Origin: an uncultured Actinomycetota bacterium
GTDB taxonomy: Bacteria > Actinomycetota > Actinomycetes > DATJPE01
Assembly: GCA_963805505.1 (NCBI GenBank)
Contig: CAWDUP010000004.1
Span: 355,738-419,737, forward strand
Direction of reading: 5' to 3'
DNA length: 64,000 bases
The position numbers and the translations under genes are program-made. Position 1 is the first letter of the stretch. Each line of letters starts with the position of its first letter. Below are positions 7,169-64,000 of this stretch, piece after piece. The notes beneath the pieces are model-generated. The model saw nothing but the letters and a program-made list of their open reading frames with translations. It was not told where the DNA came from and did not search any database.

Positions 7169-7549
7169 ATGACCCGTGACATCGTGTTCACTTCCACTGC
7201 TGCGGCACCGCCGCCGACCTACAGTCAGGCCGTCAAAGCCGCGGGGCTGATCTTCGTCTCCGGGACGGCCCCTGCCGATCCAGCCACGGGCGCGCTCGTG
7301 GGCGAGACCATTCAGGAGCAGACGCGGCAATGCCTGACCAACGTCAGCGCCATTCTCGAAGCGGCCGGCAGTTCGTTGGACCGCGTCGTCAGCGCCACCG
7401 TCGTGCTAGCCGATGAGGACGACTTTGCTGGCATGAATGAAGAGTGGCTGCGCTGGTTCCCGTCGGATCCGCCGGCGCGTCAGGGCGCGAAGCTACCGGC
7501 GCGAGTGCCCGGCCTCAAGGTGTCCATCGCGGCGATCGCCGAAGCCTGA
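7169..7549 (+). CDS. RidA/YjgF family reactive-intermediate deaminase
   Basis: 126 aa with the typical blocks YSQAVKAAGLIFVSG and EQTRQCLTNVSAILEAAGSSLDRVV. Confidence 0.85.
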   Translation: MTRDIVFTSTAAAPPPTYSQAVKAAGLIFVSGTAPADPATGALVGETIQEQTRQCLTNVSAILEAAGSSLDRVVSATVVLADEDDFAGMNEEWLRWFPSDPPARQGAKLPARVPGLKVSIAAIAEA

Positions 7550-7561
7550 GTGCAACCTGGC

Positions 7562-9515
<1,954 letters not shown>

Positions 9516-36507: not shown

Positions 36508-38516
<2,009 letters not shown>

Positions 38517-38687: not shown

Positions 38688-38891
38688 TCAGGAGATGATT
38701 CGGACGTCCTCGGCCTGCGGCCCCTTCTGACCCTGAGTGATTTCGAGCTCGACGCGCTGATCGGCCTCCAGGGTCCGGAATCCCTCGGTCTGGATCACGC
38801 TGTAGTGGACGAAGACGTCCTGACCGCCGTCCACGGCGATGAAGCCGTAGCCCTTCTCGCCGTTGAACCACTTGACCGTGCCTTGGGCCAT
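38688..38891 (-). CDS. cspA: cold-shock protein CspA (67 aa)
   Basis: [34 protein letters not shown]... Confidence 0.92.
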
Positions 38892-38991
38892 GCCGCGCTC
38901 CTGATCGGTGTTGGTACGTCGCCGCTCTGCATCAACGTCCACGAGAGTAGTGCGCCCGGCAGTAGAGCGCCCCGTCCGGACGGGACCAGGG

Positions 38992-39726
38992 TCACGTGAG
39001 CACCGGTTGCGGCGGTAAGTCGAACTCGTCGTTGCTCATGCGAAGGAGGGCGACGGACGCTCCCGCAAAGCCCACCGCGGCCACGGTCAGGCCCGCGGCG
39101 ATCAGCACGTTGTTCACGCTGAAGAACGGATGCGTGAAGGTCCCGAAGATCAAGGCGATGCCCATCCACGCCGGAGCGGCCTTGCTGCGCCACAAGGCGA
39201 AGCCCAGCAGCGGAAGGCCGATCAGGATCGCGATGATGAAGCCCAAGGACGCAAGCTGCTGGATCGGGTTGGATTCCATCGCATCCTCCAACGCGGAGAT
39301 GGCCGATACGTCCAGCCCGTGCTGGGCTATGGCGAGGGCGTCGTCATCACCTCCGCGCAACAAGGCGACGGCGGACAGGAGACCACCGGCTCCAAGGACG
39401 AAGCCGACCGTCGTCAGGCGGGGAGCACCGCGGCGGGTCACCCAGGCCACAGCCACGATCGCCGGGACGATGAGCACGACGAACGCTGCGTCAAACCATT
39501 GCAGCACCTCCATCCGCTGCTGATGAGCCGCGAAGGCGGTCACTCCATCGGCCAACGAGACGTCGCCCTTGCCCGGGTAGAGCAGGTAGTTCACCGCCTT
39601 GGCCAACATGGGCAGCGGGGCGACAACGGCGAGCAGGATCCGCCAGAAACCGCGCCAGTCGTGGACAGCTGCGGCCCCCGGCAGATCGGCTGAGGAAGCG
39701 GTGCGGCCTGAGGAGCTGATAGTCAT
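38992..39726 (-). CDS. integral membrane protein, unknown function
   Basis: ~6 hydrophobic helices. ATG at 39726 chosen. Confidence 0.55.
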
Positions 39727-39883
39727 GTGAACCTCCCGGTCAGCGGTGATCTGTCGGAGGTCAACCGTCTGTCGCCCGAAGGCATTCGTCATGGGAGGAG
39801 CAGCCCAACTTCCCCTGACGAACCTGGGCCAGATAGGTGCCTGTACCTATGTCCAGCACCGCCGAGCGAGACCACAATGAGCC

Positions 39884-41848
39884 ATGGTCGCTGCGCCGCG
39901 TGGGCCGATCACCGTGCTGGCGGTGACGGTCGTCGTGTGCTTCGCGGCCTGGATGGCCTGGTTCATCGGCGGCCACACGTTCGCGGATGCTTTCGACTCA
40001 TATCTGCTGTCGAACACCGCGCTAGGCGTCACGTTCACAGCCTTCGGTGTGCTCGTCCTGGCCCATCGGCCCAAGCACACGGTTGGCCGGCTGTTCATCG
40101 CCTTCGGTGCCTGCTACGCAGCGAGCGTCGCCTGCTTGGGACTCGTCTCTGGCGCCCTCCCCTTGTCGGCAGGCGTGGAGCGGTGGATCACCGTCGTCGG
40201 CATCACCGTCTGGATCCCCGCGCCTTTGGTGGTCCTCCCGCTGATCCTCCAGCTGTTCCCTGACGGGCGACCACTTTCCTCTCGCTGGCGCCCTTTCGTT
40301 GCCGTCACCCTGGCCCTCACCGCGACTGCACCACTCCTGGCCCTGGCACCCGGATCGATCGAAGACGAGCCGATCACCGATCCCAGTCCGCTGCTGCCTG
40401 CCCGTGCCGGCGAGGTGGTCCAGGCAGTCCTACCGTTCTTCACTGCTCTAGCCGCGGCCACCCTGCTGGTCAGCCTCGGCTCGCTAGCCCTCCGGGCGCG
40501 GAGATCGATCGGAGTCGAGCGGCTGCAGGTCATGTGGCTGCTCTGGGCGGTCGCCGTATTCGTCGTGCTCAACGCCCAACGCCTGGTCACCACCGACGGG
40601 CCGATCCTGTTCGTGCTGACCCTGGCACTGATCCCTGCGGCCGGCACGGTGGCCATCGTGCGATACCACCTGTACGACATCCGCCTCATCGTCAACCGTT
40701 CTGCGGTCTACGGGATCCTCACGGGAGGGGTCGTCCTGGCCTACCTCTCACTTGTGGCCGTCACGGCAGCGCTGGTCGGGGATCACACGCGAGCGGGAGC
40801 CTTGCTGGCGACCGGCTTGGTCGCTGTCGCATTCGCCCCTGCGCGGGCACGCGTGCAGGCACGCGTCGACCGCCTCATGTACGGCCGCCGACGCGACCCG
40901 GCGCAAGCTGCCGCGACCGTTGTGGTCCGCCTGGGGGACGGCCTTGACGGGGTCCTGCGGGCGACGTGCGAAGCGTTGGCACTTCCCTACGCCGCCGTTA
41001 GCTCGAACGGACGCATCGTCGCTTCGCACGGCGTGCTCCCGGACCTTCGACACACGTTTGCGCTAGACGCACCCGAAGGCTCCGGGGCAGACCTGCTCGT
41101 GGGCCTGCGCGTCGGCGAGACGCGACTGTCCGGCTCAGACGAAAGAGCCCTGGATCTGTTGAGAGCCCCCATCTCGGTCGCTTGGCAAGCCATGGTGCTG
41201 TCCGAGGATCTCCTTGACTCCCGCGCGCGCATCGTTGCGAGCCGCGAGGAGGAGAGACGCCGCCTGCGCCGAGATCTCCACGATGCCCTCGGCGGTTCGC
41301 TCACCGCGGTGAGCCTCAAGGTCGACGCAGCGCTCAACCTGAGAATGACTGACCCTGGGGGGTCCGCGGAGCTGTTGACGGGAGTACGGGCCGATCTGAC
41401 CGGAGTCATCGATGACATCCGTCGACTCGTGAACGCCTTGCGCCCTCAACCCCTGGACGACCTCGGCCTCGTCGGGGCACTTCGGCAACGCGCCGATCAC
41501 GCCTGGAGCCGAGAAGACGGCACGTTCCTCGTCACCATCGACGCACCCGAGCCGATGCCGGCGATGCCGGCAGCCGTGGAGGTGGCGGCTTACCGGATCG
41601 CGTCGGAGGCGGTGACGAACACCATGCGACACGCACAGGCTCGCCGCTGCGCCATCACCATGCGTGTGGACGGCGACCTCTACCTCGAGGTCAGAGACGA
41701 TGGGGCGGACTGCACCAAGCCATGGCAGGTCGGCGTCGGTCTGACGTCAATGGCCGAGCGGGCGACCGAGCTTGGCGGGCGGCTGGTGGCCGGTCCGACG
41801 GACCACGGCGGCCGGGTCCACGCGGTATTGCCTCTGGAGCCGGCATGA
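39884..41848 (+). CDS. multi-TM sensor histidine kinase (HisKA_3)
   Basis: ~9 N-terminal TM helices. H-box EERRRLRRDLHDALGGSL. HATPase region (RDDGAD, GVGLTSMAERA). Confidence 0.85.
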   Translation: MVAAPRGPITVLAVTVVVCFAAWMAWFIGGHTFADAFDSYLLSNTALGVTFTAFGVLVLAHRPKHTVGRLFIAFGACYAASVACLGLVSGALPLSAGVERWITVVGITVWIPAPLVVLPLILQLFPDGRPLSSRWRPFVAVTLALTATAPLLALAPGSIEDEPITDPSPLLPARAGEVVQAVLPFFTALAAATLLVSLGSLALRARRSIGVERLQVMWLLWAVAVFVVLNAQRLVTTDGPILFVLTLALIPAAGTVAIVRYHLYDIRLIVNRSAVYGILTGGVVLAYLSLVAVTAALVGDHTRAGALLATGLVAVAFAPARARVQARVDRLMYGRRRDPAQAAATVVVRLGDGLDGVLRATCEALALPYAAVSSNGRIVASHGVLPDLRHTFALDAPEGSGADLLVGLRVGETRLSGSDERALDLLRAPISVAWQAMVLSEDLLDSRARIVASREEERRRLRRDLHDALGGSLTAVSLKVDAALNLRMTDPGGSAELLTGVRADLTGVIDDIRRLVNALRPQPLDDLGLVGALRQRADHAWSREDGTFLVTIDAPEPMPAMPAAVEVAAYRIASEAVTNTMRHAQARRCAITMRVDGDLYLEVRDDGADCTKPWQVGVGLTSMAERATELGGRLVAGPTDHGGRVHAVLPLEPA

Positions 41849-42558
41849 CCGTCGAGCAGTCCCCTGCTGCGTCACCGCCTGCGGAATCACTGACCGAAGA
41901 CACGCCAATTCGGCTCCTCATCGTGGACGACCACCCCCTCATGAGGGACGCGCTGCGCGCATTGATGAGCTCACTTCCCGACTTCGTGGTCGTCGGCGAG
42001 GCCAGCGACGGACTGACCGCACCGAGGGAGGTGCAGCTGACCCGGCCCGACGTCGTCATCATGGATCTGCATCTACCGGGCGCCAGCGGCATTGACGCCA
42101 CCCGAGCCATCAGAGAGCGTTCCCCGAGCACGAAAGTCCTTGTGCTGACCATGCTCGAGGACGACGACTCGGTCTTCGCAGCCATGCGCGCGGGGGCAGC
42201 GGGCTACGTGGTCAAAGGTGCGCAACAGGACGAGATCGTCCGGTCCATTCGGTCGGTCGCTGCTGGCCAGGCAGTATTCGGCCCAGCCATCGCCGGTCGC
42301 ATGAAGGACTTCTTTGCGCGCGGCTCCGCCAGCTCCAGCCCCAACGCGCCCTTCCCAGAGCTGACCCCTCGCGAACGCGAGATCCTCGACCTCGTCGCCC
42401 AGGGCCGATCAAACTCATCGATTGCGCACACACTGGTGATCAGCACCAAGACGGTCAGCAACCACATCTCCGCCATCTTCGCGAAGCTGGCCGTGGCGGA
42501 TCGCTCCGAGGCCATCGTTCGGGCCCGCCAGGCCGGCCTCGGAGGCACGACGGACTGA
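41845..42558 (+). CDS. response regulator, NarL/LuxR family
   Basis: ATGA overlap with the kinase. IRLLIVDDHPLMRDAL...DVVIMDLHLPG plus the LuxR HTH REREILDLVAQGRSNSSIAHTLVISTKTVSNHI. Confidence 0.9.
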   Translation: MTVEQSPAASPPAESLTEDTPIRLLIVDDHPLMRDALRALMSSLPDFVVVGEASDGLTAPREVQLTRPDVVIMDLHLPGASGIDATRAIRERSPSTKVLVLTMLEDDDSVFAAMRAGAAGYVVKGAQQDEIVRSIRSVAAGQAVFGPAIAGRMKDFFARGSASSSPNAPFPELTPREREILDLVAQGRSNSSIAHTLVISTKTVSNHISAIFAKLAVADRSEAIVRARQAGLGGTTD

Positions 42559-42574
42559 GTGCCCGATCGAAGAT

Positions 42575-42850
42575 TCAGCCTCCGGCAACAGCAGGGATGA
42601 CCGAGACCGAACACCCGTCGGGAGTCGCCGTCCCGAGTCCCTCGGCGAACCGTACGTCGTCATCGTTGACGTAGACGTTGACGAAGCGCCTCAGCTTGCC
42701 CTCGTCGTCGAGAACGCGAGCCCCGATCCCGGGGTGGGCATCGTCCAGCGCCGCAACGACCTCCGCGACGGTGCCACCCTCGACAGACACCTCTGCCGCG
42801 CCGCCGGTGTACTGGCGCAAGATCGTGGGAATCCGAACGGTGACGCTCAT
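42575..42850 (-). CDS. MoaD/ThiS-family sulfur-carrier protein ending in Gly-Gly (CysO/MetO-like)
   Basis: 91 aa with IPTILRQYTGG...VNVYVNDDDVRF...VSVIPAVAGG-stop. Its start overlaps the stop of the upstream PLP enzyme (TGATG). Confidence 0.8.
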   Translation of the reverse strand: MSVTVRIPTILRQYTGGAAEVSVEGGTVAEVVAALDDAHPGIGARVLDDEGKLRRFVNVYVNDDDVRFAEGLGTATPDGCSVSVIPAVAGG

Positions 42851-44130
42851 CAGGACACAACCTCTCGGAAGGCTTCCAGGGAAGGACTGATCGTCGCAGA
42901 CGGTCCGACCACCGAAGCGACCGCATCGAGGGTCTTGAGGCCGTCTCCCGTATTCAGGATGACGGTCTCCGCTGCAGGGTCCAAGGCCCCTTCCGCCAGC
43001 AGGGCACGCAGGACGGCCACGGTGACACCGCCCGCGGTCTCCGCGAAAATCCCTTCGGTTTCCGCCAACAACCGGATGCCTTCGATCACCTGCTGGTCCG
43101 AGACGTCGCCGACGGCGCCACCGGTACGTCGTACGACGTCTAGGGCGTACGGACCGTCAGCGGGGTTGCCGATCGCCAACGACTTGGCGATCGTCTGGGG
43201 GCGCACAGGACTGACGACGTCGTGGCCCGCCCGCCATGCCTGGGCCACGGGTGAGCATCCGGTGGCTTGCGCGCCGAACACCCGGTATGGCGTGTCCTCC
43301 ACCAGCCCTAGCTTTGCCCACTCCCTAAAGGCCTTGTCGACCTTGGTCAGCAATGAGCCAGACGCGACCGGCGCCACGATCTGTTCCGGCAGCCGCCAGC
43401 CGAGCGCCTCGGCCACTTCGTAGCCGACCGTCTTGGAGCCCTCGGCGTAGTAGGGCCTGAGGTTCACGTTGACGAAGCCCCAGTCCGCCTTGTCCGGCTC
43501 TCCGGCGATCTCCGAGCACAACCGGTTGACGTCGTCATACGTCCCGTCGACTGCCACCAGCGTGCCGCCGTACACCGCCGTGGTCAGGACCTTGCCCGCC
43601 TCGAGGTCGGAGGGGATGACCACCACGGAACGCAGCCCGGCCCGGGCGGCTGCAGCTGCCACGGCATTGGCCAGGTTGCCGGTGGAGGCACAAGCGATAG
43701 TGCGTATTGCGAGCGGGCGAGCCGCCGCGAGGGCAACGGCGACAACTCTGTCCTTGAACGAGTGCGTGGGGTTACCGCTGTCGTCCTTGACCCACAACGC
43801 CTTCATGCCGAGAGCGCGAGCAAGGTTGTCGGCCCGCACCAGCTGGGTGCACCCGGGCGCCAGATTGGGGAGACCGGCAACGCCTTCTGGCACCGGGAGG
43901 AGATCGCGGTAGCGCCAGATCGAGTGCGGACCCGCCTCGATCCGCTCGCGGATCGCGAAGCCCTGCCCCAGGTCGTAGGCGACCTCCAGCGGCCCGAAGC
44001 AGTCCTCGCAGGCATACCGAGCCCCGAGGGCGTACGTGCGTCCGCACTCGCGGCAGGTCAATCCGACGGCTGAGCCCAACGAACCGGGAGGCAGATCGGT
44101 CCGGGCAGTGGAATCGATGGATGCGGTCAC
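42850..44130 (-). CDS. threonine-synthase-family PLP enzyme with N-terminal zinc ribbon (MetM-like candidate)
   Basis: CRECG...CEDCFGPLEV ribbon. PLP lysine block NPTHSFKDRV. GNLANAVAA. ~427 aa from GTG 44130, which lies 17 nt after the riboswitch P1 stem. Confidence 0.85.
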   Translation of the reverse strand: MTASIDSTARTDLPPGSLGSAVGLTCRECGRTYALGARYACEDCFGPLEVAYDLGQGFAIRERIEAGPHSIWRYRDLLPVPEGVAGLPNLAPGCTQLVRADNLARALGMKALWVKDDSGNPTHSFKDRVVAVALAAARPLAIRTIACASTGNLANAVAAAAARAGLRSVVVIPSDLEAGKVLTTAVYGGTLVAVDGTYDDVNRLCSEIAGEPDKADWGFVNVNLRPYYAEGSKTVGYEVAEALGWRLPEQIVAPVASGSLLTKVDKAFREWAKLGLVEDTPYRVFGAQATGCSPVAQAWRAGHDVVSPVRPQTIAKSLAIGNPADGPYALDVVRRTGGAVGDVSDQQVIEGIRLLAETEGIFAETAGGVTVAVLRALLAEGALDPAAETVILNTGDGLKTLDAVASVVGPSATISPSLEAFREVVS

Positions 44131-44143
44131 GCGAGAAGCCTTT

Positions 44144-44295
44144 CTTCTCATCTTCCCCGGCGAAACGCACCGGGACGGACGTGGCACCTGTCGTTCCCCG
44201 CGATCTGACTGCATTCAGACGACTGCGCTGTGCGGGTGCGATGGTTGCCGGGGCTTCGTCGGGCCGTGTCCCTCTGCCCCTCTGGATGAGCGGTA
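44144..44295 (-). promoter_or_regulatory. SAM-I (S-box) riboswitch
   Basis: The minus strand reads CUCAUCCAGAGGGGCAGAGGGACACGGCCCGACGAAGCCCCGGCAACC...CAGGUGCCACGUCCGUCCC...GGGGAAGAUGAG. It has the P1 stem CUCAUC/GAUGAG and the conserved S-box core blocks. Confidence 0.85.
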
Positions 44296-44438
44296 TGAAG
44301 TTGTCGCGCGACGCCTGATGTGCCAGGTGAGCCGTACGTGTTGGAGACTGTAGCGAAAGCCACCGCAGCCATCCGATGACCGTCCGGCTGGCGAGACAGC
44401 ACTAGCAGGCCATCACCGGCACAGTTCAGGAGGCGTTC

Positions 44439-45410
44439 GTGCGGCCCGACGTGACCCGCTGGTTTGCCCGGCGAACCTCGGTCGCCGCCGACTGGCCGGT
44501 GACAAACCTGCTCGCCGCCAAGGCGAGCACGTCGATCAGCGTCGTTCTGCCGGCGCTGGACGAGGAAGCGACCGTCGCATCCATCGTGGACGCCATCGTC
44601 ACCGACCTTGCCAGCGGTCCTGACCCCCTCGTAGACGAGGTCGTCGTCATGGACAGCGGCAGCAGCGACCGTACGGCAGCGGTCGCGGCCGCGGCCGGTG
44701 CGCGCATCGTGCGCGGAGACAGCGTGCTGCCTCAGCTTCCCCATGTCATCGGCAAGGGTGAGGCCCTCTGGCGATCGCTGGCCGCGACGAGCGGCGACAT
44801 CGTGGTGTTCGTCGACGCCGATCTCGAGTCCTTCTCGGCCAACGTGGTCACGGGGTTGCTCGGTCCATTGCTCACCGACTCGAGCGTCGAGCTGGTCAAG
44901 GGCTTCTACGACCGCCCCCTGCGCGACGGCGACTCGCTGCTGACCAACGGAGGGGGACGCGTGACGGAACTCGTCGCAAGGCCGATCCTCAACCTGCACT
45001 GGCCAGAACTGGCGGGTGTGGTGCAGCCGCTGGTCGGCGAGTACGCCGCCCGTCGGCCGCTGCTCGAGGCACTGCCGTTCCCCACCGGCTACGGCATCGA
45101 GCTGGCGATGCTCGTTGACACCCTGGAGTCGGTCGGGCTCGATGCCATCGCCCAGGTCGATCTCGGGGTTCGCCATCACCAACACCAGAGCGAACATTCG
45201 CTGGGTCGCATGGCGGCTCAGATCTGGCAGGCAGCGCTGCACCGACTCGATCCCGACGGACACACGTGGCGCAGCCACGCGCTTGGCGCAACGCTGGCGC
45301 AGTTCGAGAGGGTCGACGGCGCCTACGTCGCGACGAGCCACGACGTCTCGGTCACCGAACGGCCGCCGATGTCGCAGCTGCGCCGCGAACTGGCCCGTCG
45401 AGCGTCTTGA
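44439..45410 (+). CDS. gpgS: glucosyl-3-phosphoglycerate synthase
   Basis: GT81-type blocks ISVVLPALDEE, VVVMDSGSSDRT, GKGEALWRSL, VFVDADL. GTG follows AGGAGG. Confidence 0.82.
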   Translation: MRPDVTRWFARRTSVAADWPVTNLLAAKASTSISVVLPALDEEATVASIVDAIVTDLASGPDPLVDEVVVMDSGSSDRTAAVAAAAGARIVRGDSVLPQLPHVIGKGEALWRSLAATSGDIVVFVDADLESFSANVVTGLLGPLLTDSSVELVKGFYDRPLRDGDSLLTNGGGRVTELVARPILNLHWPELAGVVQPLVGEYAARRPLLEALPFPTGYGIELAMLVDTLESVGLDAIAQVDLGVRHHQHQSEHSLGRMAAQIWQAALHRLDPDGHTWRSHALGATLAQFERVDGAYVATSHDVSVTERPPMSQLRRELARRAS

Positions 45411-59175: not shown

Positions 59176-59251
59176 TGGGGCCGACGAGGGGACTTGAACC
59201 CCTAACCGCCCGATTACAAGTCGGGTGCGCTACCAATTGCGCCACGTCGGC
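59176..59251 (-). tRNA. tRNA-Thr (anticodon UGU)
   Basis: Cloverleaf read by hand: acceptor GCCGACG/CGTCGGC, D stem GCGC/GCGC, anticodon stem CCCGA/TCGGG with loop CUUGUAA, T arm AGGGG-UUCAAGU-CCCCU, and an encoded CCA. Confidence 0.9.
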
Positions 59252-62958: not shown

Positions 62959-63102
62959 GACCGCCCACCGTAGTCAGCGAGAGTGCCCACACCCGCGGCC
63001 GAGGTGCCCTAGGCTGCTGCCGCGGACGTCTCCCGACGTCTGTGTGCACCTTCCACAGTGGATCGTCCGGCACGTTCCTGCCGGTGAAGGGCTGGATCAA
63101 CG

Positions 63103-64000
63103 ATGGCAACGATCACATTCGACAAGGCATCGCGTCTCTACCCAGGCTCAACTCACCCCGCGGTCGACGCCCTTGAGCTACACGTCGAAGATGGCGAGTT
63201 CCTCGTCCTCGTCGGCCCATCCGGGTGCGGCAAGTCCACGTCCCTTCGGATGTTGGCCGGCCTGGAGGAAGTGACCGACGGCGCCATCTTCATCGGCGAG
63301 CGCGACGTCACCAATCTGGCGCCCAAGGACCGCGACATCGCGATGGTGTTCCAGAACTACGCCCTCTATCCGCACATGTCCGTCGCCGAGAACATGGGCT
63401 TCGCGCTCAAGATCGCCGGGACCCCCAAGTCGGAAATTCAGAAGCGCGTCGCCGACGCTGCCGCTCTGCTCGATCTCGAGTCCTATCTGGACCGCAAGCC
63501 CAAGGCCTTGTCGGGTGGCCAACGCCAACGCGTCGCGATGGGGCGAGCGATCGTCCGCGAGCCGCAGGTGTTCTTGATGGATGAGCCGCTCTCCAACCTC
63601 GACGCCAAGCTACGTGTGCAGACCCGCACCCAGATCGCCGCCTTGCAACGACGGCTGGGAATCACCACCGTCTACGTCACCCACGATCAGGTTGAGGCCA
63701 TGACGATGGGTGACCGGGTGGCCGTCCTCAAGGACGGCGTTCTTCAGCAGTGCGACAGCCCTCGCGTCATGTACGAAAACCCGGCGAACGTTTTCGTGGC
63801 CGGTTTCATCGGGTCACCGCAGATGAACCTCGTCGAGGCGCGCATCGTTGACGGTGGCGTTCAGGTGGCTGGCCGGGTCGCGCAGATCGACCGGGAGAAG
63901 GTTGCTGCCGCCACCGCCGAGGGAGCCAAGACACTGACCCTGGGCTTCCGCCCAGAAGACCTGGAGGTCACCGACGGGGAAACCGGTTTGCCGGTGCAGG
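63103..64000 (+). CDS. sugar ABC transporter ATP-binding protein (MsiK/UgpC/MalK-type), 3' partial
   Basis: Read directly from the sequence: [15 protein letters not shown]...[20 protein letters not shown]...[14 protein letters not shown]...[11 protein letters not shown]. The ORF runs off the window end. Confidence 0.9.

Follow-up and report, generated by a model that had tools for sequence, protein, structure and literature searches.

A SAM-I riboswitch ahead of a MetM/MetO-like gene pair in an uncultured actinobacterium, and its predicted role in homocysteine synthesis

The DNA studied here, called the window throughout, is a stretch of 64,000 nucleotides (nt) from an uncultured Actinomycetota bacterium (GenBank assembly GCA_963805505.1, contig CAWDUP010000004.1, positions 355,738 to 419,737). 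On its minus strand a riboswitch of the SAM-I (S-box) class, which responds to S-adenosylmethionine (SAM), precedes a gene for an enzyme resembling threonine synthase (ThrC) and a second gene for a small sulfur carrier (Table 1). We refer to the two genes as metM and metO, after the Streptomyces system with which they are compared below. An initial annotation, made from the sequence alone, had proposed that the pair makes homocysteine for methionine synthesis, and the analysis reported here followed up that proposal.

Table 1. Features of the metM/metO locus and its surroundings, in window coordinates.
Feature	Position	Strand	Description
groEL	36756-38426	-	
cspA	38688-38942	-	
Histidine kinase gene	39884-41848	+	HisKA_3
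Response regulator gene	41722-42558	+	LuxR type; convergent neighbour
metO-like gene	42575-42850	-	91-residue sulfur carrier of ThiS/MoaD fold, ending AVAGG
metM-like gene	42850-44130	-	426-residue ThrC-family enzyme; Pfam PALP, E 8e-69
Hairpin GAGAAG-AAAGG-CUUCUC	44133-44149	-	Shares GAG with the 3' arm of P1
SAM-I (S-box) aptamer	44145-44292	-	Rfam RF00162, full model
Leader element ACAACUUCAUACCG	44291-44304	-	Conserved 5' leader element directly upstream of P1
Candidate -10 hexamer TACAGT	44347-44352	-	Weak; sequence reading
Glycosyltransferase gene	44439-45410	+	Family GT2; divergent neighbour

The aptamer was aligned by the Rfam covariance model RF00162 over its entire length (model positions 1-108 of 108) with 72.1 bits, against a gathering score of 44.4 bits, and an E-value of 6e-15, and is thus a full four-helix riboswitch of the SAM-I class. 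The conserved S-box blocks quoted in the initial annotation were all present, the arms of helix P1 lying where it had placed them (CUCAUC at 44290-44285, paired with GAUGAG at 44152-44147), and P3 bears an insertion of 44 nt. The leader between P1 and metM is 16 nt long; the GTG start codon, at 44130, begins with the 17th nucleotide, in agreement with the spacing given there. A set of 80 related actinobacterial loci (L001-L080), whose enzymes are 66-75% identical to that of the window, was collected from Streptomyces, Streptosporangiales, Kribbella and other Nocardioidaceae, Nakamurella, Nanopelagicales, Acidothermales and Sporichthyaceae. The SAM-I core stands immediately 5' of the enzyme gene in 79 of them, and the eight loci tested with Rfam all gave full-length SAM-I matches of 67-78 bits. 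The sole exception is L031, where neither the core motif nor the Rfam model was found upstream of the enzyme gene.

The product of metM is a ThrC-family enzyme of fold type II, dependent on pyridoxal 5'-phosphate (PLP) bound by a Schiff-base lysine. This residue, K126, sits in an SFKDR sequence that aligns with the lysine motif of ThrC and is found in all 80 related loci. The family assignment made earlier stood, the enzyme matching TIGR00260 (thrC) with 272 bits in addition to PALP, but the length of 427 residues did not: the gene encodes 426 residues plus the stop. The Cys4 zinc ribbon that had been noted at the N-terminus was borne out by the invariance of C26, C29, C41 and C44 in 12 relatives and by a CxxC...CxxC pattern kept in 80 of 80 loci. 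An AlphaFold model of the enzyme (12-sequence alignment; predicted local distance difference test score only 68.6) served fold assignment alone, and its top structural matches in Foldseek were ThrC enzymes. The family is large, with all 8000 of the 8000 candidates scored passing an E-value of 1e-20 and the top matches 73-91% identical, and every named database match is labelled 'threonine synthase'. Identity to the riboswitch-linked orthologs is 66-91%. The window enzyme shares 66-69% identity with over 20 Streptomyces orthologs in which riboswitch, metM and metO are arranged as they are here. These orthologs belong to clusters, built at 90% identity, with 1810 and 1369 members; a look-up of the clusters for 10 Streptomyces orthologs did not list a member from Streptomyces albulus.

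Canonical ThrC enzymes of solved structure (PDB 2d1f, 1uim, 2zsj and 6cgq) have the fold of MetM and its SFKDR lysine motif, and presumably use O-phosphohomoserine as it does. They are nevertheless only 34-38% identical to it (34% for the Mycobacterium tuberculosis enzyme), differ in their loop motifs and have no partner carrier, and they lack the Cys4 ribbon, because their alignments begin at query residue 68 at the earliest. The three solved ThrCs compared carry STGNT[SA]A where all 80 related loci have STGNLA[NGH] (STGNLAN in the window), and further signatures of the clade are a VNVNxRPYY-type motif (77 of 80 loci) and GNPADGPY (79 of 80). The residues of Thermus thermophilus ThrC that grip the phosphate of the substrate fall, as we take it, within these signature loops, and such remodelling of the phosphate site would fit an altered reaction outcome.

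The second gene is adjacent to metM and co-transcribed with it, and encodes a ThiS/MoaD-fold carrier with a C-terminal Gly-Gly (Pfam ThiS, E 7e-15). The metM stop codon overlaps the metO start codon in TGATG at 42852-42848. The initial annotation had read both the overlap and the 91-residue carrier with its AVAGG end correctly. The closest relative of solved structure is M. tuberculosis CysO (3dwg_C, E 7e-27), the thiocarboxylate donor to CysM, and the ThiS/MoaD-family partner chain of 4n6e, presumably the BexX-CysO complex, is also among the nearest. Assignment of the carrier as MoaD was rejected, since TIGR01687 scored 37.7 against a cut-off of 49.5 and MoaE is absent from the window.

A carrier ortholog adjoins the enzyme gene on its downstream side in 70 of the 80 related loci. 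The C-termini of these 70 proteins are GG in 55, GGC in 12 (L020, L029, L046, L047, L051, L054, L057, L058, L064, L071, L072 and L076), GGQ in L048 and GGAR in L052, with one running into a contig end. Nine of the 12 GGC carriers come from Streptomyces or the related Actinacidiphila. The L026 carrier also ends in GGC and stands outside the count of 12, its BLAST match ending early, and L001 has a long extension. GapMind 2026 (bioRxiv 10.1101/2024.10.14.618325) lists Mec as a [MetO]-L-cysteine hydrolase needed for MetO maturation, a step that is explained by the GGC termini, found mainly in Streptomyces; in most other lineages the carrier has a GG end. This variation fits a Mec-dependent trimming confined to some taxa. 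The window carrier already ends in GG, and C-terminal trimming is therefore not required, as had been anticipated in the claim that it needs no protease to mature. By analogy with CysO and with HcyS, a carrier of Wolinella succinogenes, a JAMM hydrolase may still be needed for product release.

At five loci (L002, L016, L025, L030 and L050) the riboswitch-linked enzyme is present and a MetO-like open reading frame (ORF) was not found in the flanks; here the carrier must be encoded elsewhere or the sulfur must come from another source. In L016 an ORF of ~66 residues and one of 564 residues come after the enzyme gene, where relatives have cspA and groEL, and L025 and L050 have a small ORF similar to that of L016 after the enzyme gene. 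A second carrier-like ORF occurs in L046 (31-300), ~9 kb upstream of metM; it is 56% identical to the window MetO, ends in GG and may be a CysO paralog.

Taken together, the locus is read as a MetM/MetO operon, orthologous to the known one and governed by a SAM-I riboswitch, a reading to which we assign a probability of about 0.88. The system is already known, and the locus is properly read as an instance of the published MetM/MetO. The Streptomyces report that the initial annotation could only recall does exist: Hasebe et al. (2024, Appl Environ Microbiol 90:e01247-24), as summarised in two citing papers (bioRxiv 10.1101/2024.10.14.618325 and PMC12172450), described the SAM riboswitch, metM and metO in S. 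albulus. The S. albulus locus has the order seen in the window (SAM riboswitch, ThrC-like enzyme annotated as threonine synthase, ThiS-fold carrier), and MoeZ and Mec are encoded elsewhere, just as neither an E1-type enzyme nor Mec is encoded within the 64 kb analysed here. According to PMC12172450, the riboswitch precedes S. albulus metM and MetM prevents methionine auxotrophy. GapMind 2026 defines MetM as a MetO-thiocarboxylate-dependent homocysteine synthase acting on O-phosphohomoserine, MetO as the sulfur carrier and MoeZ as the MetO sulfur ligase, and calls MetM 'often misannotated' as threonine synthase. A literature search for an earlier link between the S-box and threonine synthase in Streptomyces returned nothing relevant. 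The window lineage differs from that of S. albulus, its nearest named relatives being Motilibacter and Vallicoccus, and its carrier ends in GG, whereas GGC ends are found mainly in Streptomyces.

By analogy with the characterised system, the window ortholog would perform MetM/MetO chemistry, and the following pathway is proposed. A homoserine kinase encoded elsewhere would supply O-phospho-L-homoserine, from which MetM, a threonine-synthase-derived PLP enzyme, would eliminate the phosphate and add sulfur from the C-terminal thiocarboxylate of MetO at the gamma carbon to give homocysteine. Methylation of homocysteine would lead to methionine and SAM. MetO, needing no trimming of its Gly-Gly end, would be charged by a MoeZ-type E1/rhodanese encoded elsewhere. 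The homocysteine route suggested earlier thus finds support in the gene layout, in the 66-69% identity to the Streptomyces orthologs and in the low identity to ThrC, and the preference for a methionine over a threonine role is strengthened by the recurrence of riboswitch and carrier among the related loci. The O-phosphohomoserine/thiocarboxylate route to methionine would then be present in an uncultured actinobacterium and, given the 80 related loci, would belong to the conserved core genome in many orders of Actinomycetota. The practical value lies in annotation correction and in pathway reconstruction for methionine prototrophy.

How the riboswitch acts on metM was approached through the short expression platform between P1 and the GTG. 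The hairpin formed there (GAGAAG at 44149-44144, the loop AAAGG at 44143-44139, which resembles a Shine-Dalgarno (SD) sequence, and CUUCUC at 44138-44133) was found as described in the initial annotation: it overlaps the final three bases of P1 and has a local free energy of -7.3 kcal/mol (z = -2.9 against shuffled leaders). One GAG is contested by the CUC that closes the hairpin and the CUC with which the P1 5' arm opens, a strand-exchange design. Local minimum-energy folds were computed for 55 distinct leaders and scored against shuffled leaders (mean z of -1.3); in 42 of them, two or more bases in the 3' arm of P1 are paired to a pyrimidine tract past the SD. The competing pairs are compensatory, being GAGAAG/CUUCUC in the window, GAGG/CCUC in most leaders and GAUGAG/CUCGUC in some. 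Among relatives the purine-rich SD starts 0-4 nt after P1, and the start codon lies 8-22 nt past P1 in 78 of 79, the exception, L017, having a doubtful arm call. A terminator scan of 42300-44600 found no intrinsic terminator-like site. Control at initiation is the best reading because the spacing between P1 and the start codon leaves no room for a transcriptional platform, and from this geometry metM is probably under translational control. Plentiful SAM would bind the aptamer and lock P1, so that only 3 nt separate the end of the folded aptamer from AAAGG and 16 nt separate it from the GTG, and loading of the 30S ribosomal subunit would be blocked; without SAM, the P1 3' strand would move into the weak GAGAAG/CUUCUC hairpin, exposing the SD in its loop. 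Translation of metO would follow that of metM through translational coupling at TGATG.

Several results weigh against this account. Pfam scans of the GC3-supported ORFs (GC3, the GC content at third codon positions) of the entire window detected neither a ThiF/MoeZ-type E1 nor a JAMM/Mec protease, nor homoserine kinase, homoserine dehydrogenase, MetX, MetY or a second ThrC; the remark that no E1-like enzyme is encoded nearby was correct, and the E1 and the rest of the pathway are unseen in the window. Orthology to the characterised S. albulus MetM rests on its Streptomyces congeners, at 66-69% identity. The TIGR00260 score is above the cut-off of 167 for thrC (NF006050, at 272, is below its cut-off of 303), and a Microcystis homolog, 51.6% identical, has threonine synthase and deaminase activity in vitro (PMC12172450). 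When accessibility was modelled for 80 leaders, the mean unpaired probability of the SD and start codon was 0.54 with P1 enforced and 0.44 when the 5' arm of P1 was blocked; the shift went in the expected direction for only 11 of the 80 sequences.

The last of these results bears on the mode of control. Since modelled accessibility was not lower with P1 formed, simple sequestration of the SD was rejected as the mechanism, and secondary structure alone fails to explain switching. The translational control put forward in the initial annotation therefore held in part, the P1-start spacing and the lack of a terminator supporting it and the folding models leaving the switching unexplained. As a working model, a ligand-locked four-way junction 3 nt from the SD, possibly stacked on a residual AAG/CUU stem, would hinder 30S binding sterically. 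A more speculative suggestion, and an unlikely one, is that the 16-nt platform represents an undescribed translational mode of SAM-I switching, made up of the P1 3' strand, an SD displayed by a hairpin loop and a CUC that imitates the 5' arm of P1 in strand exchange; it could work through coaxial-stacking occlusion at P1 once the ligand has locked it, or through another input bound to the conserved leader. With the gene functions unchanged, the riboswitch might instead work through Rho-dependent termination or mRNA decay, factor-dependent routes for which the lack of an intrinsic terminator leaves room and which would accommodate folding models showing no SAM-dependent SD sequestration. We consider this unlikely, though it is the alternative with the strongest claim: the 16-nt spacing and an SD abutting P1 in nearly all relatives are typical of translational switches, and Rho effects are possibly secondary to a loss of translation.

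The remaining alternatives concern the chemistry. One is that the enzyme is a normal threonine synthase, or a ThrC with deaminase activity besides, and that the small protein is a MoaD/ThiS unrelated to it, as the TIGR00260 score, the database names, the structural matches to ThrC and the activities of the Microcystis homolog might suggest. Against this, what stands upstream in 79 of 80 loci is a SAM riboswitch and not a threonine signal, the gene for the GG-ended carrier overlaps the enzyme gene and has adjacent orthologs in 70 of the 80, the enzyme is only 34% identical to M. tuberculosis ThrC and the STGNT[SA]A loop is replaced in every locus; moaE was not found in the window, and the label itself is flagged by GapMind as a common misannotation. 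This makes a threonine synthase highly improbable, in favour of the MetM/MetO assignment. That the pair makes another thio-compound, be it cysteine from O-phosphoserine in a CysM/CysO-like manner or a thio-sugar or natural product in a BexX/CysO-like manner, has in its favour the solved relatives of the carrier (CysO in 3dwg and the 4n6e partner chain) and is the least probable of all, as the enzyme belongs to the ThrC and not the CysK/CysM branch (cysteine synthase A, only 38 bits), SAM-I control points toward methionine, and the genes occupy a core-genome position beside cspA-groEL and not a biosynthetic cluster.

Protein thiocarboxylates serve PLP enzymes in other pathways, and the M. tuberculosis CysM/CysO/Mec/MoeZ system has a carrier homologous to MetO. 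There the thiocarboxylate reportedly donates sulfur to a PLP enzyme whose substrate is an O-phospho amino acid, but CysM is said to belong to the cysteine synthase branch and to convert O-phosphoserine into cysteine, unlike the window enzyme with its place in the ThrC branch; we know of no SAM riboswitch at CysM/CysO. In the HcyS/HcyF/HcyD/MetY system of W. succinogenes the sulfur of homocysteine reportedly comes from a ThiS-like thiocarboxylate, as proposed here, but the enzyme is said to be MetY, an O-acetylhomoserine sulfhydrylase of a different PLP fold type with O-acetylhomoserine as substrate. For the RNA, the closest comparison is SAM-I_Xcc of Xanthomonas (PMC7270179), which joins a SAM-I aptamer to methionine synthesis with control at initiation, as is proposed for metM. 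Its platform has three extra hairpins, P5-P7, and explicit anti-SD and anti-AUG strands, whereas the whole platform of the window is 16 nt.

The residual novelty of the locus lies in this minimal platform and in the conserved ACAACUUCAUACCG element. A leader of the form ACAACU-NN-AUA-NNN is found directly 5' of P1 in the window and in most of the 80 related loci. Its core, ACAACTNNAWA, occurs once in the window against 0.04 occurrences expected by chance, and 35 times in the 1.14 Mb of related loci, 32 of these within 400 nt upstream of metM and two more in a repeat array of L007, likewise upstream of metM (34 of 35 in total). Many related loci have a TACAGT or TAGAGT hexamer upstream of the leader, and in loci without an extra hairpin the ACAACU leader lies ~7 nt past such a box; from this sequence spacing, the leader may mark the start of transcription. 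A consensus sigma-70 scan did not report the TACAGT candidate. The aptamer, the SD region and the start codon were inspected by eye as possible pairing partners of the ACAACUUCAUACCG leader, and P1 for a possible extension, but no consistent complementarity or covariation emerged.

Several of the related loci carry variations on this region. In L007 (Actinomadura mexicana) a tandem array (7512-7855), in which a 77-nt unit is repeated 4.5 times with 99% identity, lies upstream of the real aptamer. Each unit combines the ACAACU leader with the 5' arm of P1 and the 5' strand of P2, after which the sequence is unrelated; three related species (L011, L034 and L071) and L018 have one or two additional, incomplete copies. 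These repeats are truncated pseudo-aptamers. The ACAACU leader is missing from L023, L027, L028, L032, L037, L038, L059, L062-L065, L068, L073, L079 and L080 (Nocardioidaceae/Kribbella), several of which show, by eye, in the region from ~-70 to -10 before P1, GAGAC-N5-GTCTC-type inverted repeats and a TAGGCT-like box, the latter just ahead of P1. Their arrangement suggests a candidate protein operator layered on the riboswitch. In the window, the ACAACU leader is abutted by GTCGCGCGAC (44303-44312, minus strand), a perfect palindrome of 10 nt that could be an operator or a chance occurrence in GC-rich DNA.

The surroundings of the pair are conserved as well. The order DUF3263-LytR_C-otsB-(otsA or GT2)-[enzyme-carrier]-cspA-groEL, in which otsB and the genes for the LytR_C and DUF3263 proteins lie farther out on the side opposite cspA and groEL, is common to a 91%-identical relative, Thermomonospora curvata and Motilibacter rhizosphaerae, and the locus therefore holds a conserved position in the core genome and is not an island. 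The window differs from the S. albulus system also by an inserted two-component system, which separates metO from cspA. The inserted segment (38992-42558) holds the LuxR-type regulator, the HisKA_3 kinase and an ORF of 266 residues without a Pfam match; cspA directly follows metO in T. curvata and Motilibacter, and the 91%-identical relative carries the insertion too. Farther away, a tRNA-Thr gene (anticodon TGT) lies at 59176-59251 on the minus strand, and an msiK RNA motif (RF01747, 50.3 bits; 63041-63101, plus strand) is found just upstream of a gene for a MalK-like ATPase of the ATP-binding cassette type that starts at 63103.

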